DNA from: a virus
Lineage: Duplodnaviria; Heunggongvirae; Uroviricota; Caudoviricetes
Virus record (IMG/VR): IMGVR_UViG_2541047752_000002
DNA: 39,757 bases
Direction: 5' to 3' (one strand)
Part shown: positions 1 to 37,556 of the stretch, one piece after another
How the letters are laid out: each line of letters opens with the position of its first letter
Numbering within the stretch: the stretch's first letter is position 1
Notes under the pieces: model-generated
Told to the model about the DNA's origin: nothing
The model's database searches: none
Seen by the model: the letters and a program-made list of their open reading frames with translations, nothing else
Position numbers and translations under genes: made by a program

Positions 1-1284
1 TTACTTCTTCGCCTCTGCAACCACTTTGCTACCCACGCCGCGGTTATTGTATTCCCACATGCGGTTGTAGTTAGTGTCATTCAGATTGCGTTGTATTTCG
101 TCGTTATCATCAACGCTGCCGGTGTTACCCGCAAACGGACGATTAGAGATCACCGCATCAGCCCAGGGTTTGGCTGTGTTAAAACCTTCGTTGATGGCGC
201 TATCACGGATCACCACCTGACCGTTGGTATTGGCATCAACATCCAGCGAGCGACCCAGTTGCGCCACGCCATCACCGGAAGCATTGAAACGGCTGTTTAC
301 GGCGAGGAAACCGTAATAGATGTTAGACAGCGTAGCCGGTGCAAACACATACGCTTCTTGCTGAGTACGTGAGTTCACCACGCGGAATTCGGTGTTATCG
401 AACACCACTGCGCCGCGACCAGAAACGATATCCACATCCCCTTCAATGTAACTGTTGGTCACCAGAGTACGCGGCTGACGGTTGGTTTCCAGACGGTTTT
501 GCACACCACTGTTGGTGACAAAGAAGGTATTCTGACGACCGAGAATGTTGACGTTATTGATCTGCACTTTGTCACCATCAGTACGCAGTGCCACCGCCGG
601 ATGGTTACCCGCATCTACGCTATCGCCCAGCGTGTTTTCGATGGTCAGATTTTGCAGTTGCAGGCCATTGTTTTGTGACCAGAAGACCGCAGAGCAGAGA
701 ACACCGATACTGTCGCTGCGTTTGCTCTGGCAGCTATCGTACATATACCACGCTGGTTTACCTGGCATATATTTGCCGCGCGGGTTGACGTCGTGACGCC
801 AGTCGGCAGGGCTCATGCCCCCATCAAGGGAAAGCCCAATCTTCACATCAATCGGTTTTTCACCTGTACCGTACAGAGTAATTCCACCCGGAGCGGCAGG
901 GACATACACCGTTCCCTGATACTCACCAGGCATCACGGCAATATACTGGCGCTTGTTGGTGCGCTTGATAATTGCCGCATCTACCGCCGCCTGAATCGTG
1001 GTATGCGTTACACCTTGAGTACCCGCCGGGCCGACAACAAAGTCAGGTTGCGCAGGCAGGGTAATCGGGGAAGGATTCCACGCTGCCGCACCTGGTGTCA
1101 GGGATGCAAAATAGTGTTGAGCATCGAAATTCTGCGCTTCTTTTGCCGACAGAATCGGGCGAGAAGAGGTACCAGGCGCGGTTTGATCAGAAGGACGTTG
1201 ATCGGGCGGTGTTGAGCTACAGGCGGTCAGCGTCACGCCAAAAGCCAATGCCAGCGCCAGACGGGAAACTGAAAATGTGTTCAC
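1..1284 (-). CDS. ybhC: YbhC, pectinesterase-like outer-membrane lipoprotein (host gene on the gal side of att-lambda)
   Basis: Complete 427-aa ORF with lipoprotein-type signal peptide (LTLTAC); recognised from memory as the host gene flanking attB-lambda; lies immediately outside the att core. Confidence 0.85.
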   Translation of the reverse strand: MNTFSVSRLALALAFGVTLTACSSTPPDQRPSDQTAPGTSSRPILSAKEAQNFDAQHYFASLTPGAAAWNPSPITLPAQPDFVVGPAGTQGVTHTTIQAAVDAAIIKRTNKRQYIAVMPGEYQGTVYVPAAPGGITLYGTGEKPIDVKIGLSLDGGMSPADWRHDVNPRGKYMPGKPAWYMYDSCQSKRSDSIGVLCSAVFWSQNNGLQLQNLTIENTLGDSVDAGNHPAVALRTDGDKVQINNVNILGRQNTFFVTNSGVQNRLETNRQPRTLVTNSYIEGDVDIVSGRGAVVFDNTEFRVVNSRTQQEAYVFAPATLSNIYYGFLAVNSRFNASGDGVAQLGRSLDVDANTNGQVVIRDSAINEGFNTAKPWADAVISNRPFAGNTGSVDDNDEIQRNLNDTNYNRMWEYNNRGVGSKVVAEAKK

Positions 1285-1418: not shown

Positions 1419-2489
1419 TTATTTGATTTCAATTTTGTCCCACTCCCTGCCTCTGTCATCACGATACTGTGATGCCATGGTGTCCGACTTATGCCCGAGA
1501 AGATGTTGAGCAAACTTATCGCTTATCTGCTTCTCATAGAGTCTTGCAGACAAACTGCGCAACTCGTGAAAGGTAGGCGGATCCCCTTCGAAGGAAAGAC
1601 CTGATGCTTTTCGTGCGCGCATAAAATACCTTGATACTGTGCCGGATGAAAGCGGTTCGCGACGAGTAGATGCAATTATGGTTTCTCCGCCAAGAATCTC
1701 TTTGCATTTATCAAGTGTTTCCTTCATTGATATTCCGAGAGCATCAACATGCAATGCTGTTGGGATGGCAATTTTTACGCCTGTTTTGCTTTGCTCGACA
1801 TAAAGATATCCATCTACGATATCAGACCACTTCATTTCGCATAAATCACCAACTCGCTGCCCGGTAACAACAGCCAGTTCCATTGCAAGTCTAAGCCAAC
1901 ATGGTGATGATTCTGCTGCTTGATAAATTTTCAGGTATTCGTCAGCCGTAAGTCTTGATCTCCTTACCTCTGATTTTGCTGCGCGAGTGGCAGCGACCGG
2001 GTTTGTTGTTATATGGCCTTCAGCTATTGCCTCTCGGAATGCATCGCTCAGTGTTGATCTGATTAACTTGGCTGACGCCGCCTTGCCCTCGTCTATGTAT
2101 CCATTGAGCATTGCTGCAATTTCTTTTGTGGTGATGTCTTCAAGTGGAACATCAGGTAGCCCCCTCCTTATTGCTTTAATTTTGCTCATGTAATTTATAA
2201 GTGTCTTCTGCTTGATTCCTCTGCTGGCGAGGATTTTTTCGTAGCGATCAAGCCATGAATGTAACGTAACAGAATTATCACTGTTGATTCTCGCTGTCAG
2301 AGGCTTGTGTTTGTGTCCTGAAAATAACTCAATGTTTGCCTGTATTGCTTCAGTAATTGCTATCCTCCTGTCTCTGCCTAATCCGAACTCTTTACCCGTC
2401 CTTGGGTCCCTGTAGCAGTAATATCCATTGTTTCTTATATAAAGGTTAGGGGGTAAATCCCGGCGCTCATGACTTCGCCTTCTTCCCAT
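1419..2489 (-). CDS. int: Lambda-type integrase (tyrosine recombinase)
   Basis: 356-aa ORF beginning MGRRRSHERRDLPPNLYIRNNGYYCYRDPRTGKEFGLGRD, recognised as lambda Int; adjacent to att P' arm; overlaps xis as in lambda. Confidence 0.97.
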   Translation of the reverse strand: MGRRRSHERRDLPPNLYIRNNGYYCYRDPRTGKEFGLGRDRRIAITEAIQANIELFSGHKHKPLTARINSDNSVTLHSWLDRYEKILASRGIKQKTLINYMSKIKAIRRGLPDVPLEDITTKEIAAMLNGYIDEGKAASAKLIRSTLSDAFREAIAEGHITTNPVAATRAAKSEVRRSRLTADEYLKIYQAAESSPCWLRLAMELAVVTGQRVGDLCEMKWSDIVDGYLYVEQSKTGVKIAIPTALHVDALGISMKETLDKCKEILGGETIIASTRREPLSSGTVSRYFMRARKASGLSFEGDPPTFHELRSLSARLYEKQISDKFAQHLLGHKSDTMASQYRDDRGREWDKIEIK

Positions 2490-4121: not shown

Positions 4122-4946
4122 TCAGGCGGTGAAAGTACCAATAAAGGTTTCTACTTTGCTGTCTTTGAATTTCTCAACAAGCAGATCACGAAATTCGTTA
4201 GCCATTTCTTCCTGCACCGCTTCCAGCTGAATAATGCGCAGAACCAGTACAGGACGATCGCCAGTGATAATGCTGAGGCGTAATTTAAACGGACGTTCTT
4301 TCAGACCTTCAAACGGAACGCATTTAAATTCAAATGCCACTGGCATAATGTCTTTGGTCTTCGCTTCGACAGACTCCATCAGGGAGCGTTTGCCGCTGAA
4401 GTCATTATCTTCAAAATCAGCGGTCTGGTTTGCTTCAATCGTGATTTTACGGACTGCCGCAGCCGCTTTTGTTGCTTGAATGGCGTCACCATTAGCATCA
4501 AAGCCCACAAGGTAGTCGGCCCAGTCTTCGATCCATTCTGCCAGTGACTTCTGGGAGTTACGCTCGCCGTTAACAGACAACAGAGCAGAGAACGGTGCTG
4601 TCTTTTTCAGTTTGAGAGTGGCAGTGTTATCTGCGTGACCTGGCTCATCAATAGTACCCAGGTTAAGCACACTGACGGCACGCATATTATCGGCATCGAT
4701 AAAGCAGCGGGTGCCTTCATCTGCAAGATCTTTAGAATAACGGGTAAAATCATCGATGCTGGCAGTGGAAAGTGCACCACGGAAACGGAAGCGATTTAAA
4801 TTAAATTTTTCCAGATCATGAATGCGGAAATTCTCAGGCAATGCCACAGCATCGGCACCAATCTTACTGATAATTTCATTAACACCCTGAGCAGAAATAA
4901 GGGCATGGATTTGATTAATTGCGGTTGCGTCTAAGTTCTGAGACAT
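4122..4946 (-). CDS. yfdQ: DUF2303/YfdQ-family prophage protein
   Basis: 274-aa [23 protein letters not shown]…, recalled as the YfdQ family; co-oriented in the early-left operon. Confidence 0.65.
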
Positions 4947-5011: not shown

Positions 5012-5374
5012 TTAACGACCTGCTGCGCGGAGTTTTCCGTCAGGTTCACCGGCAAGAGTCAGTAATTGTCCCTGGTCTTCCTGCAGAATAGTCAGGCGAC
5101 CACCGCGATTGACATACATCGGCGTTTCGGTGGTGTCTTCTTCGGAAATTTTCCCGCGGTTAGTCGGGCGAATATATGAGAGTTTGTGTTTGATTTTCAC
5201 ACGGTTCTCATCAAATGGTTCGATTTCCAGGTTGAGTGAGACCTTACCTTTGGTTTTCGTGTTCATCACACCGGAAGCGACTTCACTGAGAACTGCGCCG
5301 ATTTTGGTTTCAAATACGCCGCCGTCCAGCTCCCCGATAAATGCCTGCACATCAGTACTGCGTTCGCTAGCCAT
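5012..5374 (-). CDS. Early-left hypothetical protein (120 aa, YfdP-like)
   Basis: Start assigned to ATG at 5374 preceded by AGGAG 7 nt upstream; the 226-aa track ORF is an upstream run-on into GC-rich non-coding DNA. Confidence 0.6.
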   Translation of the reverse strand: MASERSTDVQAFIGELDGGVFETKIGAVLSEVASGVMNTKTKGKVSLNLEIEPFDENRVKIKHKLSYIRPTNRGKISEEDTTETPMYVNRGGRLTILQEDQGQLLTLAGEPDGKLRAAGR

Positions 5375-5392
5375 TTTGCTGCTCCTCATCAT

Positions 5393-5843
5393 ATCGACCC
5401 TGCAAGGCCGATTAGTTTCTCCACAAAACAGAGAAGAACACCTGTGGTGGCCGCCGCCCGGATGGATTGGGTTATGAGCCCGTCGTCCGGTGATGCTCTT
5501 CTCTGTTTTGTAAAAAGGACGGTACCAGCCGGAAGCAAGGGTACAAGCTGGTACCGCCAGGACTACACACAGCATAAAGTTGTGGTGCCGGGTGCCTCCC
5601 GGTGCCTGGCGAAGGTTGCACACCAGGCGGGTGGGTATCCACAGAAGGTCGACTGTCAGCCTCAACCTTAACCCGCGTGCGCTGAGCCGCATTCACCACA
5701 ACGCTAAGGATTCTCTCTGGTTGAAAATACTTAGCTGTTATGTGCCTGCTTTTAGCCACATCAGGCGAGGTGGACCTGGTTATTCCCCAACAACAAGGAT
5801 TTGGTTAATCTGGATATCCCCAACAACTAGCTGAGTATTCAAC
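5393..5843 (-). other. GC-rich untranslated leader with long inverted repeats (candidate structured RNA element of the leftward early transcript)
   Basis: No ORF with a credible start or Shine-Dalgarno; 16-bp inverted repeat ACAAAACAGAGAAGAA (5423-5440) with its complement (5494-5512); 9-bp stem GGTACCAGC/GCTGGTACC (5521-5555); direct repeat TCCCCAACAAC at 5784 and 5816. Confidence 0.4.
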
Positions 5844-6365
5844 GTGATAGCTGAACTGTCTGCGGCTATGGCCGCTATAAAGGAGACTGCCGGTCTTGCT
5901 AAGGTTATTAATGACGCGAAAACGGATGCAGAAGTTAAAGCTGCAACCATTGAACTCCAGAACAAACTAATCACGCTTCAGGCAGAATGCTTCTCTCTTG
6001 GCGATGCGATCCGCCTTCGTGATGAAGAGGTGATGCATCTCAAAGCAAAAATTGCAGAGTTTGAAGATTTTTGTGCCAAGGTAGAAGGATATGTCCTTGA
6101 TCAGCTTGACTCTGGTGCTTTTGTTTACTCTAAAAATGAAATTGTGAGTGGAAAAGAAATAACTGTGCATCTGTGCCCACTTTGTTATTCCAAAAATATA
6201 AAATCGATACTTCATCCGCTTCCAGTAGGTAAAACTTCTCATTTTCTTACAAGCCGTTGCCTTCACTGTGAAAATAAATTTCTTATGGAAAAAAATCCGA
6301 TGTACGAACGACCAAGATCATTACGTGAGTTGGGGCGAGATCTGAATTCGCCTTGGATTCCTTAA
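5844..6365 (+). CDS. Hypothetical coiled-coil protein with C-terminal Cys4 zinc ribbon; opposite-strand moron in the immunity region
   Basis: 173-aa ORF (GTG 5844 or ATG 5868); CPLC…(x29)…CLHC motif; AT-rich 3' half; own intrinsic terminator at 6408-6431; antisense to the leftward early operon. Confidence 0.55.
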   Translation: MIAELSAAMAAIKETAGLAKVINDAKTDAEVKAATIELQNKLITLQAECFSLGDAIRLRDEEVMHLKAKIAEFEDFCAKVEGYVLDQLDSGAFVYSKNEIVSGKEITVHLCPLCYSKNIKSILHPLPVGKTSHFLTSRCLHCENKFLMEKNPMYERPRSLRELGRDLNSPWIP

Positions 6366-6394
6366 ATCTTGCATTGGTTGGATGATACCCAGAT

Positions 6395-6406
6395 TGTTAA
6401 AGAGCT
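6395..6406 (-). promoter_or_regulatory. rrn-type boxA-like motif (GCTCTTTAACAA) on the leftward transcript, candidate nutL
   Basis: Exact 12-nt match to the remembered rrn boxA consensus on the minus strand, just downstream of the hairpin at 6408-6425 and of the putative PL. Confidence 0.4.
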
Positions 6407-6407
6407 A

Positions 6408-6431
6408 AGCGTCCTGTAGGGCGCTTTTTTG
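6408..6431 (+). terminator. Intrinsic terminator of the zinc-ribbon moron gene
   Basis: Hairpin AGCGTCCT-GTAG-GGCGCT followed by TTTTTTGTT. Confidence 0.65.
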
Positions 6432-6510
6432 TTGCTAACGAATCATCCTGGACTTCATATGCCCCAGGCGGCTACTTCGTGGGCGTCCTGCCTGTTTGTT
6501 GTTTCTCTTG

Positions 6511-6543
6511 GGTACATTATGTATCTCATAGGTACATTGTCAA
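6511..6543 (-). promoter_or_regulatory. Putative PL promoter with overlapping OL operator half-sites
   Basis: Minus strand reads TTGACA (-35), 16-nt spacer, CATAAT (-10); GGTACAT half-sites at 6511 and 6528 match those in the cI-cro intergenic region. Confidence 0.5.
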
Positions 6544-6582: not shown

Positions 6583-7257
6583 TTAGGCTTTGATTTTGTA
6601 TCTTCTTGGTTTTCCTGAGAAAATCACAGTTCCAATTATAGAGCAATTACCGTTGATCTTAATGTAAGGCTCAGGCCAGTTTGGGTTTAACGCTTTGAGA
6701 TAACGCTGTGTCCCATCTTCTATCAACCTTTTGAAGGTGGTTTCACCTGTATCGTGCATCAATGCAATAACGTCGTCACCGTGGCAGGCAGGTACTTCAG
6801 GATCGACAAAAATCATGTCTCCCGGGCGGTACTCATCAATCATTGAATCACCTATCACCCGCAAGATATAAGTCATTTCCCCACAGGGTACAGGGCAGGG
6901 ATACGTTTCTGCTGTGCTCAAATCAACCTCAGAATATCCAACTTCTTTCCATGCTCCGGCCTGTACCCATGATATGACAGGGACTAATGTGATTTGTTTA
7001 TTAGTGATTGAAACATCAGGTTTTTTTGTGATGTTCGTTGTCTGGTGTTCTTGATCGAGCCATCCGACAGGCAGGTCGAAACATTTTTCGATGTGTCGTG
7101 CCATGCTGTCACCGATATTTTTAGTAGCACCATCTCCCATAAACCTGCTGGTCTGGGTTGGCTCGCGATCAATCATAGTGGCAAAGGAAGAATTCCCGCC
7201 AACACCATCTCTCAGTTTTCTGGCGTTAGACCGCCGGATGTCATGGATTGTTTTCAT
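6583..7257 (-). CDS. CI-like prophage repressor (HTH plus S24/LexA-type autopeptidase domain)
   Basis: 224-aa ORF; C-terminal S24 peptidase signature (…VIGDSMIDEYRPGDMIFVDP…); divergent from cro across an operator-rich intergenic region; no Shine-Dalgarno, so probably leaderless. Confidence 0.85.
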   Translation of the reverse strand: MKTIHDIRRSNARKLRDGVGGNSSFATMIDREPTQTSRFMGDGATKNIGDSMARHIEKCFDLPVGWLDQEHQTTNITKKPDVSITNKQITLVPVISWVQAGAWKEVGYSEVDLSTAETYPCPVPCGEMTYILRVIGDSMIDEYRPGDMIFVDPEVPACHGDDVIALMHDTGETTFKRLIEDGTQRYLKALNPNWPEPYIKINGNCSIIGTVIFSGKPRRYKIKA

Positions 7258-7347
7258 AACAAAATTAAAACCCTTGTACCGTTAAGGTACAAGTATCTTG
7301 AAGGTTCATTTCAATCATGTAATATGTATACCGGAGGTACATATTGT
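7258..7347. promoter_or_regulatory. OR region with divergent PRM/PR promoters and operators
   Basis: Palindrome TGTACC-GTTAA-GGTACA (7275-7291); further GGTACA half-sites at 7286 and 7335; PR candidate TTGAAG(7298)-16 nt-TAATAT(7320); PRM candidate TTGTAC-17 nt-TTTAAT ending 7 nt before the cI ATG. Confidence 0.6.
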
Positions 7348-12859: not shown

Positions 12860-13825
12860 TCAGAATCGCCCTTTTATTGCTAAATTACGATAATAAACAC
12901 CTAATGCAGTAAGTCGGCATCCAGTTGAATTTATCGCAGCATAGTACATATGTTCAGTATCAACCGGCTCAACCAGTCCGTGGCGGTTACATTTTTGTAG
13001 ATTTTGAAAAATTGATACATTTTCATCAATCGGTGATTCGGAAGTTGGTTCAAAGCTAGGATCTAAATGGAATACATGTGTAGCTGTTGGGAACCATACG
13101 GGCAATTTGCGAAGAGTATCCAAAGACACTCTTGGTCCTACCTCTCTCAGAACAACAAATCGAGAAACATTTGTTTTAAAGACTGGGCGCTGATCCCACG
13201 CCCCCAATGCTTGATCCACAAAGCTATACAGACTACTTGGAGTAATATAACCTAATATATTAGCTCCTGCGCCATACAAAGCTTCGACCATTAATGAAGT
13301 AAATACTCCACCATCATTAACTTCTTTGGCATACTCATCTCGTCTACATGCAGTAAGGATGGTAGAGCCATCTGCAAGTACAGTTTCTCCTCCTTTTAGC
13401 ATTCTTTCCTGGCCAGCGGCCCCAGCCTGACAGCAGTCGAGAATAATAATTTTATTGCGTATGTTAGTTGCTTTATTAGCCCAAACCATAACATCACTTA
13501 TTCTTATGCCATTACTTGATCTTGGCGAAAAGTCATGTGGAATCAACATTCCTTCATCAATGTTATTATCAAAATATCCATGTCCAGCAAAGTAAAATAA
13601 TGCAACATCACACTCTCCAGAAAAAAGATTCTGAATTTCATATTCAAGGAAATCTTTGTTGAGGGGGGTTGCACTACAGTGTGTAAGTGTTCTAGCCTCG
13701 AAATTAGGCCTCCCATCGGCGTGTCTAGATAATGCTTCTGCCATTTTTGCAGCATCATTTTCACATCCGCTGAGAGCATCTAATTCAGCATACTCATTGA
13801 TCCCAATAAATAGTGCTTTTTTCAT
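12860..13825 (-). CDS. Caspase-like (peptidase C14 family) cysteine protease with C-terminal extension of unknown function
   Basis: 321 aa from ATG 13825; motifs KKALFIGINEY…GCENDAAKMAEAL, His in FYFAGHGY, Cys in IILDCCQAG (intact His/Cys dyad); AGGAG Shine-Dalgarno overlaps the stop of the upstream TIR-like gene; AT-richer than flanking phage genes. Confidence 0.75.
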   Translation of the reverse strand: MKKALFIGINEYAELDALSGCENDAAKMAEALSRHADGRPNFEARTLTHCSATPLNKDFLEYEIQNLFSGECDVALFYFAGHGYFDNNIDEGMLIPHDFSPRSSNGIRISDVMVWANKATNIRNKIIILDCCQAGAAGQERMLKGGETVLADGSTILTACRRDEYAKEVNDGGVFTSLMVEALYGAGANILGYITPSSLYSFVDQALGAWDQRPVFKTNVSRFVVLREVGPRVSLDTLRKLPVWFPTATHVFHLDPSFEPTSESPIDENVSIFQNLQKCNRHGLVEPVDTEHMYYAAINSTGCRLTALGVYYRNLAIKGRF

Positions 13826-13835
13826 ATGGAAGCTC

Positions 13836-14237
13836 CTAAGCCAGCTCACGAATGGCAGAAACGATGCTTTCTGTATTCCACTTGACGATTTTGTGAGCGG
13901 CTTGCTTAACTTTCATAGACGTACGCTCGGAGCCCCAAGGCTCAATGGCAATAATTGGCTTTCTATATTCTTGAGCTATTCGGATCTCTGCATCAATCCA
14001 TTTGCTGTAGCTGGCATATACACCAGCCAAAATAATTACAACACTTGATGGTGCCATTTGTGATCTTATAGCAGAGTAAAGTGCAAAATCATCTTGGGCA
14101 CCAATTATTGGATCAACTCTGGGTACCGAGTAGTTCTTAAAGTTGAAATACCCACGATTCTTGAGAAGAGCCACAAGCTGTTCATAAGTGTTTGAATATT
14201 TCCAAGAGTGACTAATAAATAGATTAAAAGTTCTCAT
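13836..14237 (-). CDS. Minimal TIR-like domain protein (ThsB/DUF1863-like)
   Basis: 133-aa ORF; N-terminal FNLFISHSWKY strand motif and downstream SKWIDAEIRIA with a candidate catalytic Glu; GGAGAG Shine-Dalgarno; translationally coupled to the caspase-like gene. Confidence 0.65.
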   Translation of the reverse strand: MRTFNLFISHSWKYSNTYEQLVALLKNRGYFNFKNYSVPRVDPIIGAQDDFALYSAIRSQMAPSSVVIILAGVYASYSKWIDAEIRIAQEYRKPIIAIEPWGSERTSMKVKQAAHKIVKWNTESIVSAIRELA

Positions 14238-15875: not shown

Positions 15876-16511
15876 TCAAATTAATAAGTTGTCAAATGAA
15901 TATACGTTAAAGGTATATGTCGACATAATTTCACCAAGTACCTCAATACATATACTTTTTTTATGAAAGATACTGGGGAAGGAACTTAGCTCTTCAAGGC
16001 ATTGCACATAAGTGCTGATATCACTTGCATCACGTTCAAGGAATTTCACTTGGCCAAAAGAAGGAGTATTAATCCTAGTTCTTTGCTGGATTATATGGAT
16101 AAAATGTGTAGTTGGTGAAACTATTACTCTTGAAATATCGGAAATGATGTCTTCTTGAACTTGCCGATAAAGTAAATCCTTTGGGTAATGGTGTTTGATC
16201 TCGATGGTTGCAACATTGCCATTATGTTCAGACGTTAATATCGACTGGTTATAAAGTGATATGTCAACAGCGCCGATACCGAGTTTTGGATGCTCACTTA
16301 AAGCAGTTAGTGTGCTGATTTGATTGAGAATAACAACTAACTCATCACGTATTTGAGTTTCATGTTTGCGATTGTAGAAGTAGCAATTCAGTTCATTTAA
16401 CTTTTTATGCATCCTATCGTGACTAATTGCTTCGATCAGTAAATCCTGAATCATACTTTTCTCTAGGTAATCCGAACGGTTGTAAGTGACAGTATTGTGC
16501 TGGCATGTCAT
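15876..16511 (-). CDS. Hypothetical protein (211 aa), possible PD-(D/E)xK-like motif; AT-rich moron
   Basis: ORF on the strand opposite to the surrounding late genes; segment …GAVDISLYNQSILTSEHNGNVATIEIKHH… fits a D…E-x-K spacing (weak inference). Confidence 0.5.
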   Translation of the reverse strand: MTCQHNTVTYNRSDYLEKSMIQDLLIEAISHDRMHKKLNELNCYFYNRKHETQIRDELVVILNQISTLTALSEHPKLGIGAVDISLYNQSILTSEHNGNVATIEIKHHYPKDLLYRQVQEDIISDISRVIVSPTTHFIHIIQQRTRINTPSFGQVKFLERDASDISTYVQCLEELSSFPSIFHKKSICIEVLGEIMSTYTFNVYSFDNLLI

Positions 16512-16554: not shown

Positions 16555-16908
16555 TCATCGATAGAAAAACTTTACGGCCCACTCGTAAACCGCTTTGTAA
16601 ATCGGTTCATGGTAAATACTATCGATACTATTCAGATGTGCGATCATCGCCTCCACAGTTGTAGTGGTTGTTTCTAATATTTCGATTATTGCAGGGCGGT
16701 CATCATCTTCATCGAAGTATTCGAACAGCAGTACAGGTTTACCATGCCATTCAGCATCTGAGACTCTAAGGTTACAACTACCGCTCAACTCAAAGTGAAT
16801 TTTGTAATTACCTTCTACAGAATGGCCTACGGGGAAAAAGCATAGGGTGTCATCTTTGTTTAAAAGCCATTCCAATTCATAACTATTCATTTGTGAACTC
16901 CTGTTCAT
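16555..16908 (-). CDS. Hypothetical acidic protein (117 aa) upstream of the 211-aa ORF
   Basis: Co-oriented with the 211-aa ORF, 43-bp gap; acidic stretch FEYFDEDDDRPAIIEILETTTTT; no recognisable domain. Confidence 0.5.
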   Translation of the reverse strand: MNRSSQMNSYELEWLLNKDDTLCFFPVGHSVEGNYKIHFELSGSCNLRVSDAEWHGKPVLLFEYFDEDDDRPAIIEILETTTTTVEAMIAHLNSIDSIYHEPIYKAVYEWAVKFFYR

Positions 16909-17507: not shown

Positions 17508-18011
17508 GTGCCGCATATGGCTGGAACGGCGGGGCGTTCCGGGCGTCGCCCCAAGCCAACGGCGCGCAAGGCGCTGGCCGGAAACCCCGGCAAGCGAGCC
17601 CTGAACAAAGATGAACCCGTTTTTACGCCCATCAAAGGTGTTGAGCCACCGGAGTGGTTCGCTGAAGAAGAGCTCCCTCTCGCCACGATCATGTGGCAAC
17701 TGACAACCAAAGAACTCTGCGGTCAGGGCCTGCTGTGCGTGACTGACCTCGCAGTGCTTGAGCGGTGGTGCGTAGCCTATGAGTTCTGGCGACGTGCTGT
17801 GAAAAATATTGCCAGACAGGGCAACACCATCACCGGTGCAATGGGCGGCATGGTCAAAAATCCGGAGCTGACCGCCAAAAAAGAACAGGAGTCCGAGATG
17901 AGCAGTACGGGGGCAATGCTCGGACTCGACCCCAGCAGCCGCCAGCGTCTGATTGGCCTGGCGGGGCAGAAGAAAGCCACTAACCCGTTTCTGAAAATTA
18001 TCGAATCATGA
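17508..18011 (+). CDS. Terminase small subunit
   Basis: 167-aa ORF immediately upstream of and overlapping the large terminase gene. Confidence 0.7.
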
Positions 18012-19752: not shown

Positions 19753-19935
19753 ATGATCATGCTGATTCTCGCGCCTCTGGTGGGCGTGCTGGGGGCGCTT
19801 TTGCTGGCGTATGGTGCCTGGCTGATTTATCCCCCGGCGGGGTTTGTTGTTGCCGGGGCGTTGTGCCTGTTCTGGTCGTGGCTGGTGGCGCGATATCTCG
19901 ACCGTACACAGTCGTCTGTCGGCGGAGGTAAATAG
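19753..19935 (+). CDS. Small hydrophobic protein (two predicted transmembrane helices)
   Basis: 60-aa ORF with GAGGT Shine-Dalgarno 5 nt upstream; fills the gap between terminase and portal. Confidence 0.5.
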
Positions 19936-21176
19936 TGTTCTTTTCGGGATTATTTCAACGAAAAAGTGACGCACCGGTGACCACGCCAGCAGAGCTGGCG
20001 GATGCTATCGGGTTGTCCTACGACACCTATACCGGAAAGCAGATCAGCAGCCAGCGGGCCATGCGACTGACGGCGGTTTTTTCCTGTGTCAGGGTGCTGG
20101 CGGAGTCGGTCGGGATGTTGCCCTGCAACCTGTATCACCTGAACGGCAGCCTGAAGCAGAGAGCCACTGGCGAACGTCTGCATAAGCTGATCTCCACGCA
20201 TCCCAATGGCTATATGACGCCGCAGGAGTTCTGGGAGCTGGTGGTCACCTGTCTGTGCCTGCGGGGAAACTTTTACGCCTACAAAGTGAAAGCATTTGGC
20301 GAAGTGGCTGAACTGCTGCCCGTCGATCCCGGCTGTGTGGTACCGAAGCTTAACAGTAGCTGGGAGCCGGTCTATCAGGTCACATTCCCGGATGGCTCCA
20401 CGGATGTACTGAGCCAGGAGGATATCTGGCATGTGCGCACGCTGACGCTGGACGGACTGGTGGGGCTGAATCCCATCGCCTATGCCCGCGAGGCAATATC
20501 GCTGGCGGCAGCGACCGAAGAGCACGGGGCCAGACTGTTCAGCAATGGCGCGGTGACGTCGGGTGTGTTGCGTACAGAGCAGACGCTGTCAGATCAGGCT
20601 TACGAGCGCCTGAAGAAAGATTTTGAGGAGCGTCACACCGGGCTTGGCAATGCTCACCGCCCGATGATCCTTGAGATGGGGCTGGACTGGAAGTCGATGG
20701 CGCTGAACGCCGAGGACAGCCAGTTCCTGGAAACCCGCAAGTTTCAGCTTGAAGAAATCTGTCGTCTGTTCCGGGTGCCATTGCACATGGTGCAGAACAC
20801 CGATCGCGCCACCTTCAACAATATCGAAGAGCTGGGGCTGGGATTTATCAACTATTCACTGGTGCCGTATCTGACCCGCATTGAGCAGCGGATCAACACC
20901 GGACTGGTACGAAAAAGTAAGCAGGGCGTTTATTACGCCAAATTTAACGCCGGGGCCTTACTGCGCGGGGATATGAAGTCCCGTTTTGAAGCCTACGCCA
21001 CTGGGATCAACTGGGGAATTTACTCTCCCAATGACTGCCGCGACCTGGAAGATATGAATCCGCGTCCCGGTGGTGATGTCTATCTCACACCGATGAACAT
21101 GACCACGAAACCCTCCGATGGCAGTAAAGCCGGTAAGCAGAAGGATAACGCCAATGCAGACGAAACAACGTCTTGA
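19935..21176 (+). CDS. Portal protein (HK97-type)
   Basis: 413-aa ORF between terminase and prohead protease; GTG start. Confidence 0.8.
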   Translation: MFFSGLFQRKSDAPVTTPAELADAIGLSYDTYTGKQISSQRAMRLTAVFSCVRVLAESVGMLPCNLYHLNGSLKQRATGERLHKLISTHPNGYMTPQEFWELVVTCLCLRGNFYAYKVKAFGEVAELLPVDPGCVVPKLNSSWEPVYQVTFPDGSTDVLSQEDIWHVRTLTLDGLVGLNPIAYAREAISLAAATEEHGARLFSNGAVTSGVLRTEQTLSDQAYERLKKDFEERHTGLGNAHRPMILEMGLDWKSMALNAEDSQFLETRKFQLEEICRLFRVPLHMVQNTDRATFNNIEELGLGFINYSLVPYLTRIEQRINTGLVRKSKQGVYYAKFNAGALLRGDMKSRFEAYATGINWGIYSPNDCRDLEDMNPRPGGDVYLTPMNMTTKPSDGSKAGKQKDNANADETTS

Positions 21177-29324: not shown

Positions 29325-30695
29325 ATGAGTCCCACTCCGGTGGGATTTTTTATGTACGGAGTTTATATGACGTGGAAAGACAGACTTCAGGACGCGTCAT
29401 TTCGCGGTGTGCCGTTTAAGGTTGAAGAAGAAAGTGCGGGAACCGGTCGTCGTGTGGAAACGCACGAATACCCGAACCGCGACAAACCCTATACCGAAGA
29501 CCTGGGGAAAATCACTTTCCGCCCGTCCATCACAGCTTATGTGGTGGGAGATGACTGCTTTGACCAGCGCGATCGCCTGATTGACGCGCTGAATAAACCC
29601 GGTCCCGGCACGCTTGTCCATCCGACTTACGGTGAGCTGAAAGTCTGTGTTGACGGGGAAGTTCGGGTCAGCACATCGAAGAGTGAAGGGCGTATTGTCC
29701 GCTTTGACCTGAAGTTTGTCGAAGCGGGAGAACTCTCTTACCCCACATCAGGTGCGGCGACGGCGCAGACGCTGATGTCATCCTGTTCTGCACTGGATGA
29801 CTGCATCAGTGACAGCTTCAGCGGTTTCAGTATCGATGGCGTGGCAGATTTCGTGCAGAACGACGTTATCGGTAATGCCAGCATAATGCTTGGATATGTT
29901 TCTGATGCGATGAAAGTGGTGGATTCTGCCGTATCGGATGCTGCCAGACTGTTGCTGGGGGATATCTCGGTACTTCTGCCGCCACCATCGTCAGGCAAAA
30001 ATTTCGTTGAGCAGGTGCAGAAAATGTGGCGTACCGGGAAACGCCTTTATGGTAACGCCAGCGACCTGGTCACCATGATCAAAACGCTTTCCGGTGTCAG
30101 CCTCGGCAGCGATCTGCAACCGCGCGGCGTCTGGAAAACGGACAGTAAAACCACCGCCACGGCGACGCAGCAGCGTAATGTGGTTGCCAGCACCCTTCGT
30201 ACGACCGCAATCAGTGAAGCGGCGTATGCCGTCACCCGATTGCCTGCGCCAACAACTTCCGCGGTGATGCAGAATTCCGCAGTGGGGCAGGCAACAACAC
30301 CTGCGCAGAGCACTGGCTGGCCTTCCGTCACGCATCCGGCACTGAACAATGCACCGGCGGTGAAAAACACGGTTGACCTGCCGACGTGGGAAGAACTGAC
30401 CGACATTCGCGACACACTGAATACGGCAATTGATAAGGAGTTGTCCCGTACAACCAGTGATGCGCTGTTTCTGGCGCTGCGCCGGGTGAAAGCAGATCTG
30501 AATGCGGATATCAACACGCGCCTTGAACAGTCTGCACGGATCATTCAGCGCACACCGGATGAGGTTTTACCCGCGCTGGTGCTGGCAGCGACCTGGTTTG
30601 ATAACGCGGCGCGTGACGCGGACATTATCCGGCGTAATGCCATTACGCATCCCGGCTTTGTGCCGGTGATCCCTCTGAAGGTGCCAGTGCAATGA
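29325..30695 (+). CDS. Tail/baseplate protein (Mu gpN DNA-circularisation-like)
   Basis: 456-aa ORF in the position following the tape measure gene. Confidence 0.6.
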   Translation: MSPTPVGFFMYGVYMTWKDRLQDASFRGVPFKVEEESAGTGRRVETHEYPNRDKPYTEDLGKITFRPSITAYVVGDDCFDQRDRLIDALNKPGPGTLVHPTYGELKVCVDGEVRVSTSKSEGRIVRFDLKFVEAGELSYPTSGAATAQTLMSSCSALDDCISDSFSGFSIDGVADFVQNDVIGNASIMLGYVSDAMKVVDSAVSDAARLLLGDISVLLPPPSSGKNFVEQVQKMWRTGKRLYGNASDLVTMIKTLSGVSLGSDLQPRGVWKTDSKTTATATQQRNVVASTLRTTAISEAAYAVTRLPAPTTSAVMQNSAVGQATTPAQSTGWPSVTHPALNNAPAVKNTVDLPTWEELTDIRDTLNTAIDKELSRTTSDALFLALRRVKADLNADINTRLEQSARIIQRTPDEVLPALVLAATWFDNAARDADIIRRNAITHPGFVPVIPLKVPVQ

Positions 30696-34367: not shown

Positions 34368-35300
34368 ATGCATCGTATAGACACGAAAACCGCGCAGAAG
34401 GATAAGTTCGGCGCGGGTAAGAACGGTTTTACCCGTGGTAACCCCCAGACCGGCACACCTGCCACCGATCTGGATGATGACTACTTTGACATGTTGCAGG
34501 AAGAACTTTGTAGCGTGGTGGAGGCCTCCGGTGCCAGCCTGGAGAAGGAGCGGCACGACCAGTTGCTTACCGCGCTTCGTGCGCTGCTGTTAAGCCGCAA
34601 GAATCCGTTTGGTGATATCAAATCGGATGGCACGGTGAAAACGGCTCTCGAAAACCTTGGTTTGGGAGATGGCTCGGGGCGTTACAGCAAAACTGTCGTT
34701 TTTTCATCGTCGGGTTCATATACGTGGCCAGCTGACGTAAAACGAATTGACGTTATTCTGACTGCGGGGGGCGGCGGTGGCGGTGGATGTAACGCGGAGA
34801 ACGCAAATCAGACATTTTCAGGGGCTGGCGGAGGAGCCGGAGGTACTGTTTTTGCCACTATTTATGCGACAGACAACGATGCCGGGCCAGGGACCTATAC
34901 AGTGACAATTGGTAGCGGTGGTAGTGGTGCCAATGGGCCAGGGTCTGGAAATAATGGCGGTCATAGTTCGTTCATGACATTAACTGCGCTCGGCGGCCAG
35001 GGTGGGCAATGGGGCGGCGCTACAAATACCGCTGGCGGGCTCGGTGGTTCAGGCTCTGGCGGTTATAAAACTGAACAAGGCGGAGACGGTTCAGACGGAC
35101 AGGCGGGCCAGGCGCTATTAGTAGGCAATGGGGCATCGAGCTATTGGGGTGGCGGCGGCCGCGCTGGGCAACTGAGCGGTAATCCTGGAGTTTGCTCTGG
35201 CTCCGGCGGCGGGGGTGCATACGATAATAGCTATTCACACACGTCAGGACGTGGCGGGCACGGAGCTAATGGCGTGCTGGTAATTCGGGAGTACATGTAA
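34368..35300 (+). CDS. Tail fibre protein with glycine-rich C-terminal domain
   Basis: 310-aa ORF; N-terminal region resembles conserved tail-fibre N-termini; C-terminal half is Gly-rich low complexity. Confidence 0.75.
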
Positions 35301-35705
35301 ATGAATGATGTTTATGCAGTTGTTGATAATAACGTTGTTATTAATGTCATTATCTGGGACGGAATTTCTGAATGGAAACCAGAGGCTGGTAATTTAGTTC
35401 CGTTAAACGGCGATGCTGGCATCGGTTGGTCATATTCAGACGGAGTATTTACCGCGCCACCTCCCCCAGAACGCTCTCACAACGCGTTAGTTGCGGAGGC
35501 TGAGCTGCAGAAATCAGCACTACTGACCGTAGCAAATAACGCAATAGCACCGCTGCAGGATGCCGTTGATTTGGAAATGGCGACAGACGATGAACAGACG
35601 TTACTGCTGGCGTGGAAAAAATACAGGGTACTGCTGAACCGTGTTGATACCTCAGCGGCACCCGAAATAGAGTGGCCTACGCAACCGGGGGAGCGGGCCA
35701 GTTGA
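35301..35705 (+). CDS. Tail fibre assembly protein
   Basis: 134-aa ORF after the tail fibre; C-terminus …[12 protein letters not shown] typical of tail fibre assembly proteins. Confidence 0.75.
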
Positions 35706-36098: not shown

Positions 36099-37556
36099 TT
36101 ATTTGACGTAAATGTGGTTTCTGTATTTGACAAAAATCACATCACACACGCTTTCAATATCTTCAGGTTGACCATAAATTTTCTTCACAATATTCAATTG
36201 TTCTTTATTCTCAAGAATAAAGAAATTATTTCCTTTGTTATACCATTCGCTATTTGTAAGCCAGTTATCTCTTTTTATTTCATTGTTATTAAAAAGTATA
36301 TTTGCTATTTTTATGTCTCCATTCACACCAACAGAGTTAGTAAATGTGAAAGGGGCATATCCATAATTTGCTTTGTGCTCGTTGATTTTTTCTCTAATAC
36401 ATGACATCTGATTGTATCTATTATCAGTGGAGCCATTAATATTTATTGTTTTAATTCCTGATATTATACCCAAAAAAGCTATTAATAAAATAATGCTTTT
36501 TTTATTAAATTTAGATCTTGACAAAAGAATTACTGCCATAATGAAGACGGGAACAAGGTATCTTATTGTCCATATATTTCTTGGGAGGTTACTACCAATA
36601 TAAGCAGATGTCATGATTAAAATAGACAATGACAAACATATATCAATAACGCTTCTGTTTTTAAAAAGATTTCTGAAAGTGAAGTAAATTAATGCAACAA
36701 CACCAGCAAAGCGTATTGCTTTAGATAATAGATGCAGTGATGGTGTTATTTGCTCACCAAATATGTTTGCATTAAAAAACAATAAAGTTCCGCTTACTGC
36801 AGTATTTATATTAACTAAAATATTGTCATACTCAACAATCTTTACATCTGTTAGTCCTGGCAATGTAAAGCTTCCAAGGTTTAAAAACAAAAAACCGATC
36901 GCCTTGGAAATTAAATATGAAGAAAACAATCCAGCCATTATAATAAGGTATTTCTTTTTTCTTTCCTTGTGCAACAAAAATATTGCTGCTAATGTTAGCG
37001 GTGCAACGTATATATAGACTGAGATATTATCGCTAAAAATAGCCATAGAGGATAGTATGGTTGAAAAGTATACAAATAATATATTTTCTGTTTTAATATA
37101 CTTTTCTGTAAATATTAAGCATCCAATGATAAATATGTATGTACCCATGTGAATGCACGCTGAAAGCATTGATGTAACAGCCATGTCAGCAGGGAAAACA
37201 AAGTAGAATATAATTAGCGCTAATGCTAATGATTTATTTGTAGACAGCCTGTATATCAAAAATATCACAGTAGCATACATCGCTGGTGGTATTATATATG
37301 CAAGCTCACTGCTGTAGCCAAATAATATAGAGGCGATCGCATAAAAAGATACTTCTGTAAAGTAAAAAGGAACCGTGGATAGCATCCATCCATGAAGTAA
37401 GTAATTACCTTCTGACATATCCTTACCAAGCAAAAGCACTGTTGCCGCATCTGTATTTGGTGGGAATATGTTTAAGCTGGCAAAGTGATATAGCATAAAC
37501 AATGACGCAAATAATAAAATCACGAATATAAATTTAATTTGTTTTTTGAAAATCAT
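36099..37556 (-). CDS. Serotype-specific O-antigen glucosyltransferase (Gtr type, polytopic membrane protein)
   Basis: 485-aa very hydrophobic AT-rich ORF immediately downstream of gtrA-gtrB. Confidence 0.75.
   Translation of the reverse strand: MIFKKQIKFIFVILLFASLFMLYHFASLNIFPPNTDAATVLLLGKDMSEGNYLLHGWMLSTVPFYFTEVSFYAIASILFGYSSELAYIIPPAMYATVIFLIYRLSTNKSLALALIIFYFVFPADMAVTSMLSACIHMGTYIFIIGCLIFTEKYIKTENILFVYFSTILSSMAIFSDNISVYIYVAPLTLAAIFLLHKERKKKYLIIMAGLFSSYLISKAIGFLFLNLGSFTLPGLTDVKIVEYDNILVNINTAVSGTLLFFNANIFGEQITPSLHLLSKAIRFAGVVALIYFTFRNLFKNRSVIDICLSLSILIMTSAYIGSNLPRNIWTIRYLVPVFIMAVILLSRSKFNKKSIILLIAFLGIISGIKTININGSTDNRYNQMSCIREKINEHKANYGYAPFTFTNSVGVNGDIKIANILFNNNEIKRDNWLTNSEWYNKGNNFFILENKEQLNIVKKIYGQPEDIESVCDVIFVKYRNHIYVK

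Follow-up and report, generated by a model that had tools for sequence, protein, structure and literature searches.

According to the review PMC13434031, which summarises Patel et al. (2026, Nature 651:1060), the prophage protein ring interacting pore 1 (Rip1) has no toxicity of its own. The same review relates that phages escaping Rip1 carry mutations in the portal (Pseudomonas phages) or in the small terminase (coliphages), that cryo-electron microscopy placed 12 Rip1 subunits around an 11-mer small-terminase ring, and that the C-terminal half touches the ring while an N-terminal amphipathic helix forms the pore; Rip1-ring complexes are described as releasing dye from liposomes and making holes in cells, deletion and expression data as indicating defence, and relatives as being widespread in Proteobacteria, chiefly in prophages (PMC13434031). 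The subject of the present work is a plus-strand gene at positions 5844-6365 of a 39,757-nucleotide (nt) stretch of viral DNA (IMG/VR record IMGVR_UViG_2541047752_000002, hereafter the window), for which an earlier note made from the letters alone had proposed a superinfection-exclusion or abortive-infection function expressed in the lysogen. Homology and gene layout indicate that 5844-6365 is probably a single-protein abortive-infection defence of the Rip1 family, carried as a moron of an SfV/SfIV-like prophage.

The second system against which this locus has to be read is the sieB/esc/sas module of phage P22, with sieB of lambda (Ranade & Poteete 1993, J Bacteriol 175:4712 and Genes Dev 7:1498). 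Ranade and Poteete reportedly established in 1993 that sieB is expressed from the prophage and that the exclusion it brings about is abortive. Lytic P22 is said to make the antisense RNA sas, by which the translation of SieB is blocked and that of Esc allowed, such that the phage escapes its own exclusion; a P22 mutant unable to make the sas switch reportedly kills itself. In the P22-pbi record AF527608, 'P sieB' is annotated at 29690-29720 (TGTACC...TAAACT), sieB starts at 29758, the start of Esc follows 72 nt later, and gene 24, which is analogous to N, converges on sieB. The 127-nt sequence of sas is given in Table 2 of PMC13397905.

Rip1 homology of the 173-residue protein

Two features of the window are at issue here:

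5844-6365, plus strand: rip1-like gene, an open reading frame (ORF) with a GTG start and 173 amino acids (aa), having a helical N-terminal half and, at the C-terminus, a beta-rich domain that holds a four-cysteine zinc ribbon
6174-6269, plus strand: zinc-ribbon cysteines C111-x2-C114 and C139-x2-C142, invariant in 55 homologues, in HK446 Rip1 and in JBD30_030

A sequence search of the PDB returned a single relative of the 173-aa protein, namely chain L of entry 9OOX, 'Escherichia phage HK446 Rip1 in complex with the Enterobacteria phage T6 small terminase', with an E value of 1.8e-9 by single-sequence phmmer (query residues 5-151 on target residues 15-160) and of 2.5e-20 with a 55-sequence profile (residues 5-152). 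In hhalign comparisons, 98.7% was obtained to HK446 Rip1 (HK446_037) and 99.2% to JBD30_030 of a Pseudomonas phage, and both of these proteins belong, as the window protein does (E 2.7e-52), to phrog_1244 of PHROGs, a family labelled 'unknown function'. The AlphaFold2 model (mean predicted local distance difference test 90.4) consists of helices at residues 2-24 and 28-79 followed by the beta-rich domain. When this model was compared with the PDB by Foldseek, the only hits at E <= 0.001 were the Rip1 chains 9oox_L and 9oox_M (probability 1.0), with a template modelling score of 0.54 by query and 0.70 by target and a root-mean-square deviation of 3.9 Å, values that set a monomer model against an assembled state. 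By sequence and by predicted structure, the product of 5844-6365 is a full-length homologue of Rip1 with matching architecture and fold, and in the model its two long helices correspond to the pore-forming N-terminal part of Rip1. Its place in the family is given by the full-length similarity, the size (about 150-175 aa for the family) and the architecture with CxxC...CxxC, the 9OOX-like predicted fold and the location in a prophage against a lytic operon, all of which were found. Scans of the protein against Pfam, NCBIfam and PADLOC gave sub-threshold matches only; the silence of PADLOC is uninformative, because HK446 Rip1 is also missed by PADLOC 2023.

Several traits described in the earlier note are retained in the light of these comparisons. 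The zinc ribbon, noted there as CPLC...CLHC, consists of the four invariant cysteines listed above, and Rip1 is what the remote homology and structure search suggested there retrieved. The AT-rich 3' half is likewise real, with a GC content of 0.35 for 6050-6274 and of 0.45-0.49 for the 5' half and the flanks. The coiled-coil region fares differently: a helical region is present, but it is modelled as two long helices that would be pore-forming or oligomerising and not as a generic coiled coil. The first 25 residues are rich in alanine and glycine, and residues 1-26 have a mean hydrophobicity of 0.38-0.40 and a hydrophobic moment of 0.27-0.34, compared with 0.26-0.40 and 0.27-0.41 in HK446 Rip1, values that are similar and not diagnostic alone.

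The gene is common. A database clustered at 90% holds 167 Enterobacterales homologues, every one of which is named 'hypothetical', and a profile search of 1.84 billion representatives yielded 2502 clusters (50% identity) with an E-value cut-off of 1e-3 and 788 with one of 1e-10, of which almost all are 145-180 aa long. A near-identical locus is found in 372 of 5426 complete Escherichia coli genomes (about 7%). Mean pairwise nucleotide identity across 16 loci is 0.74, 0.85 and 0.50 at codon positions 1, 2 and 3, respectively. Since the second position is the most and the third the least conserved, and given the 167 relatives and 2502 profile clusters, the plus frame of 5844-6365 is regarded as coding.

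It is scarcely credible, for this reason, that the plus-strand ORF is incidental and that the conserved features belong to a non-coding leader of the leftward promoter pL or to the minus-strand ORFs at 5780-5974 (64 aa) and 5967-6266 (99 aa). Such a reading could draw on the observations that these antisense ORFs, which overlap the gene, remain open in several related loci, and that conservation is higher in the non-coding flanks than in the coding sequence. It is opposed not only by the codon-position pattern but by the thousands of relatives in the plus frame, one of them a solved homologue, and by the character of the minus-strand ORFs, which form a classic shadow frame. Both were judged to be shadow ORFs on the grounds that their wobble positions are common with the plus frame and that they change with the cargo gene of the locus. 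The 64-aa antisense ORF terminates in ...LVVGDIQINQILVVGE within the conserved leader.

The full length of the homology also bears on the suggestion that the protein is a nucleic-acid-binding zinc-ribbon regulator, of Rip1 ancestry yet without pore formation, acting on the lysis-lysogeny decision or on pL transcripts. The four-cysteine ribbon, the position adjoining the immunity region and weak sub-threshold matches to families combining a zinc ribbon with a coiled coil, such as CdsZ, would suit a regulator. However, the similarity to Rip1 takes in the N-terminal helices, the C-terminal domain in 9OOX contacts a protein ring and not nucleic acid, according to PMC13434031, and the slot and cassette described below hold unrelated exclusion genes (sieB) in other phages. 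On balance, a regulatory role is very improbable, and the Rip1-type defence is followed in the sections below.

The upstream block and its sieB/sas homology

Upstream of the gene lie four elements that overlap one another in part:

5743-5773, strand not assigned: 31-nt element TGCCTG(N)CTTTTNNCCACNTCAGGCNNGGTGG, invariant, matching the 3' hairpin region of sas and situated upstream of the promoter
5783-5797 and 5817-5831, plus strand: direct repeat YCCCCAACAACNAG in two copies, of which the first overlaps the -35 region and the second the start of the leader
5780-5811, plus strand: PsieB-homologous promoter with a -10-like hexamer, TAATCT, at 5806-5811
5725-5850, minus strand (ends approximate): sas-homologous region, complementary to the rip1 start codon, the Shine-Dalgarno region, the promoter and the 31-nt element

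Approximately 105 nt before the start codon are near-invariant from Escherichia to Symbiopectobacterium, with a mean pairwise identity of 83.5% for the upstream block versus 55-71% for the coding sequence and 50% for third codon positions. Alignment shows this block to be the region found upstream of sieB in lambda and P22, and the reverse complement of sas aligns with the window at about 5725-5850 (43 invariant columns among 8 sequences). The counterparts of the P22 PsieB hexamers lie at 5780-5785 and 5806-5811, the latter reading TAATCT in the window, TAAACT in P22 and lambda, and TAAAAT in HK446 and Pocitis76; the promoter is assigned solely through this homology to the annotated PsieB of P22. 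The repeat has the form YCCCCAACAAC at 5783-5797, and both copies read CCCCTACAG in lambda, P22 and HK446. Between the two repeats stands GGTTAATCTGGATATCC, and the second is followed by GAG and then by the GTG start. A transcription start is predicted close to 5818, which would give a leader of about 26 nt.

A structured 5' untranslated region was rejected as an explanation of this conservation, because the block folds no better than shuffled sequences (minimum free energy z = +1.56 on the plus strand and -0.68 on the minus strand) and RNAalifold found almost no covariation in it (-0.26 kcal/mol). A possible pseudoknot pairing GCCTG/CAGGC with CCAC/GTGG has no covarying pairs, its positions being invariant. 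Readings of the leader by eye as a site for CsrA, Hfq (ARN), LexA, CRP or sigma-54 were discarded, their spacing or conservation being unfit.

By homology with Rip1, the protein would be made at a low level in the lysogen and be harmless there, its transcription presumably starting at the PsieB-like promoter near 5818 while the cI repressor holds pL off. An infecting phage would produce ring-shaped packaging proteins (small terminase or portal), around which the C-terminal zinc-ribbon domain could bind. About 12 copies might then assemble, with the N-terminal helices forming a pore in the inner membrane, and the cell would be permeabilised before progeny mature, whereby the infection would be aborted. 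After induction of the prophage itself, leftward pL transcripts bearing the sas-homologous sequence would pair with the rip1 ribosome-binding site and start codon, and this antisense pairing, together with transcriptional collision, would shut off Rip1 and spare the prophage's own late development. Since no minus-strand terminator was predicted between 6509 and 5850, the interval from pL to the gene, pL transcripts should cross the gene after induction, and Rip1 synthesis should then stop because the pL RNA is complementary to the ribosome-binding site and start codon of rip1. The upstream homology thus suggests both expression in the lysogen and antisense silencing once the prophage goes lytic.

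The arrangement recurs among related prophages. In 19 species-representative genomes that carry close relatives of the gene, a cI-type repressor gene is convergent with it and 0.2-1.4 kilobases (kb) downstream in at least 12, the repressors being of unrelated types, either S24/LexA-like or short HTH_3/Phage_CI_repr proteins. Upstream, on the other strand, these genomes have yfdP/yfdQ-like or N-like genes. Together with the homology to Rip1 and to PsieB/sas, this conserved convergence with cI and pL lends support to the exclusion or abortive-infection function first suggested for the gene.

Another possibility is that the Rip1 fold serves the lytic development of the phage itself, for example as an accessory pore former that adjusts lysis or packaging, and not the defence of the lysogen. 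A predicted pore former that recognises rings of the packaging machine might well serve such an end, and the homologue in JBD30 does reside among late genes. Nevertheless, rip1 genes are transcribed against every lytic operon in which they were found, the present one uses the promoter region of an exclusion gene expressed from prophages, and the deletion and expression data cited at the outset indicate defence (PMC13434031). A lytic-cycle role is accordingly considered quite improbable.

Some points do count against a Rip1-type defence and should be given fair weight. The defensive role of this gene and its subfamily is drawn from homology and layout, and the two characterised branches are no more than 25-30% identical to the window protein, such that the specificity of the trigger, or even ring binding, could differ. 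The amphipathicity of the N-terminus is only moderate. The PsieB-like promoter is weak, a consensus scan having found no plus-strand sigma-70 promoter upstream of the gene, and in P22 no consensus promoter was found upstream of the sas 5' end.

The cargo slot and the surrounding prophage

The Rip1-like gene occupies a slot whose content varies between close relatives of the window. Between SfIV and the window, identity is 98% as far as 5827 and from 6389 onwards; in the intervening stretch SfIV carries an unrelated plus-strand gene of the ECs1072 family (phrog_5286). The flanks of SfV match only up to 5773 and from 6437, with a minus-strand ORF in between, and the slot of PhiR29_1 is filled by a rip1 that is 58% identical. 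The upstream block with both repeats as CCCCTACAG stands before HK446 rip1, the sieB-like gene of the Hafnia phage Pocitis76, F1055_0037 (phrog_10846) and the SfIV cargo. A pattern scan of IMG/VR yielded at least 119 loci with the 31-nt element, and both repeats were present in 40 of the 111 that could be scored. The next plus-strand ORF in these 40 belongs to the ECs1072 family in 11, to P22-type sieB in nine, to the rip1 type of the window in eight, to lambda-type sieB in four, to HK446-type rip1 in three and to F1055_0037 in one. The cassette precedes, in all, five unrelated cargo families falling into five PHROGs: Rip1, lambda-type SieB, P22-type SieB, ECs1072 and F1055_0037. Its conservation exceeds that of every one of their coding sequences.

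It is put forward here, tentatively, that the PsieB/sas region is a portable self-silencing expression platform from which lambdoid prophages express abortive-infection effectors; that unrelated exclusion genes have a sieB/sas cassette as their common platform may be new. Were this so, any cargo would be made in the lysogen and shut off by antisense RNA when the carrier phage turns lytic, the Rip1 of the window would be under a sas-like antisense switch, and the ECs1072 family and F1055_0037 would be unrecognised antiphage genes, which flags these two further cargo families as candidates for defence.

The sequence AATCTGGATATCC is found in the leader at 5807-5819 on the plus strand and has a copy on the opposite strand at 6381-6393, just after the boxA-like site listed below. 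The latter copy is perfect in most related loci and reads AATCTGGGTATCA in the window, the two together forming a 13-nt inverted repeat that flanks the cargo. The junctions of the cargo swap in SfIV, 5827 and 6389, lie just inside both copies, and the inverted repeat may be a recombination linker.

Downstream of the gene, two adjoining elements follow:

6407-6432, plus strand: intrinsic terminator of rip1, an 8-base-pair (bp) stem at 6407-6426 and then T6
6394-6406, minus strand: rrn-type boxA-like sequence AGCTCTTTAACAA, matching 12 of 13 positions of rrn boxA TGCTCTTTAACAA, directly after the hairpin on the pL transcript

The intrinsic terminator that the earlier note assigned to the gene is upheld by its folding on the plus strand (-11.5 kcal/mol, z = -2.9). 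Read on the minus strand, the stem contains a C.A mismatch and no U run follows; the terminator is on this account unidirectional, stopping the rightward transcript only. It is also present in SfIV behind a different cargo gene (junction at 6389), and among 15 aligned loci drawn from many genera, 13 have the motif GGATATCCAGATTGTTAAAGAGCnAAGCGTCC-loop-GGGCGCTTTTTT almost unchanged, with a variable loop and a conserved stem. On the pL strand (6385-6432 read on the minus strand), the hairpin is followed by the boxA-like GCTCTTTAACAATCTGG, with GCTCTTTAACAA at 6394-6405. A second role of the hairpin in the leftward transcript, as proposed in the earlier note, is plausible from this arrangement. 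One may speculate further that a boxA for Nus factors, placed where about 1 kb of untranslated antisense RNA begins, could protect that RNA against Rho; under the platform proposal, the hairpin-boxA block would allow transcripts from pL to pass through the untranslated antisense cassette without being terminated by Rho in phages that lack N, and no N gene was found in this prophage.

The window is a complete lambdoid prophage of the SfV/SfIV/CPS-53-like kind. Its further landmarks are as follows:

1-1284, minus strand: host gene ybhC, at the left end
1419-2489, minus strand: lambda-type integrase, then xis
Beyond these, leftward genes: homologues of yfdT, EaE, an HD hydrolase, yfdQ (DUF2303, 4122-4946) and yfdP
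6439-6496, minus strand: 5' leader of the pL transcript (first ~60 nt), conserved
6543-6516, minus strand: promoter pL, TTGACA-16-CATAAT (11 of 12 positions), directly after the cI terminator; promoter and overlapping operators together span 6498-6543
6571-6552, minus strand: predicted terminator of cI
6583-7257, minus strand: cI repressor (Peptidase_S24, LexA-like; Pfam E 1.5e-26), convergent with the rip1-like gene
Right of cI: a cro-like gene, ymfL/ymfM, O, terminase (small subunit at 17508-18011), portal (19935-21176) and an HK97-type head
36099-38832, minus strand: gtr module at the right end, with gtrA (GtrA_DPMS_TM), gtrB (Glycos_transf_2) and a 485-aa type-specific gene

Two operators of the form ATGTACC-N5-GrTACAT, spaced 20 bp apart, overlap pL, and the same type recurs at 7275-7295 and 7323-7342 in the divergent cI/cro promoters (pR/pRM). 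With the promoter and operators so placed, the description of the gene in the earlier note as an opposite-strand ORF of 173 aa running against pL is confirmed. The cI of the window is 100% identical to that of SfIV and PhiR29_1. In other E. coli genomes the match to the window ends at about 6500-6504, which is the pL start site, and a different immunity module begins there. Phages and prophages whose repressors differ, among them phages of Klebsiella, Citrobacter and Pantoea, nevertheless keep the 5' leader of the pL transcript. The gtrABC module stands for O-antigen glucosylation (serotype conversion), as in the Sf phages of Shigella.

In the part of the pL transcript that separates the sas-like region from the yfdP-like gene, an Rfam match to STnc100 (RF02076) covers the full model length at 5509-5732 on the minus strand (42.4 bits, where the gathering score is 47; E 6e-8) and comprises a terminal hairpin with a U run. 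STnc100 and PasD are described as prophage-encoded small RNAs (bioRxiv 10.64898/2026.05.13.724894). The minus-strand ORF at 5012-5692 (226 aa) is over-extended, as is the like-annotated SfIV_34, the match to phrog_204/YfdP covering residues 101-225 only; the yfdP-like gene probably starts near 5392, leaving about 450 bp of non-coding DNA with the STnc100-like element.

A second opposite-strand module lies inside the rightward operons at 12860-14237 on the minus strand. It comprises a ThsB-like TIR protein at 13836-14237 (PF08937, E 3.9e-18; PADLOC ThsB, E 2e-12) and a caspase-like Peptidase_C14 protein at 12860-13849 (PADLOC caspase, E 1.7e-19), and is suggestive of a TIR-caspase (Thoeris-like) defence pair. 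Immediately ahead of the small terminase gene, two leftward ORFs at 15876-16511 (211 aa, phrog_12494) and 16555-16908 (117 aa, phrog_14397), both of 'unknown function' and with no match in Pfam or PADLOC, may be further morons.

Comparison with Rex, SieB and Rip1 systems

The position of the gene had been likened in the earlier note to that of the rexAB or sieB-type exclusion genes of lambda, and of these two comparisons the second holds. RexAB of lambda causes an abortive infection that ends in membrane depolarisation. It resembles the present system as an abortive-infection function expressed from the prophage next to cI, but consists of two genes inside the immunity region, on the strand of cI and co-transcribed with it, and has no sequence similarity to the window protein. 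The latter is the product of one gene that lies downstream of pL on the opposite strand, beyond the immunity region, and the PADLOC scan gave no Rex match; a RexAB identity was rejected on these grounds.

With sieB/esc/sas of P22 and sieB of lambda, the gene shares the homologous upstream region, including PsieB and the whole sas template, and the convergence with pL. The protein itself is unrelated to SieB (BLASTP against lambda SieB, E 5.5; PHROG 1244 as opposed to 6399 and 1301), and the locus is, for this reason, described as a sieB-type cassette that does not contain sieB. Unlike P22 with its Esc, the window gene has no conserved internal start, and an Esc-like product was dropped from consideration since Met9 is not conserved. 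The upstream homology ties Rip1 to the 30-year-old sieB/sas regulatory module, a link which offers a concrete and testable answer to the question of how a prophage carrying a ring sensor avoids killing itself on induction.

Within the Rip1 family, JBD30_030 of the Mu-like Pseudomonas phages (the same as D3112 orf25, and the homologue in DMS3) is 30% identical to the window protein, belongs to the same PHROG and is likewise encoded on the opposite strand within a lytic operon, two large late genes flanking it on either side. It differs in lying among late (packaging) genes and not in the early-left operon, and in lacking a sieB/sas-type upstream region.

HK446 Rip1 has an identity of only 25% to the window protein. 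The two proteins agree in PHROG, length class, the order of helices and zinc ribbon, the four cysteines and the predicted fold, and their genes agree in lying on the strand opposite to the pL operon and in being preceded by the 31-nt element, the pair of repeats and the -10-like hexamer, with the repeat reading CCCCTACAG in HK446 versus CCCCAACAAC in the window. In HK446, rip1 (plus strand) abuts the 3' end of N (minus strand), exactly the place held in lambda by sieB (34482-35036, plus strand) next to N (35037-35438, minus strand). The window gene, on the other hand, comes directly after the pL leader and has its own terminator and boxA-like site. A probable function is thereby offered for a gene annotated only as 'hypothetical protein' and common in prophages of E. 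coli and many Enterobacterales, and Rip1 defence would be extended to the SfV/SfIV-like serotype-converting prophages. Since the window, HK446 and JBD30 are alike in this respect, transcription against a lytic operon emerges as a recurrent property of rip1.

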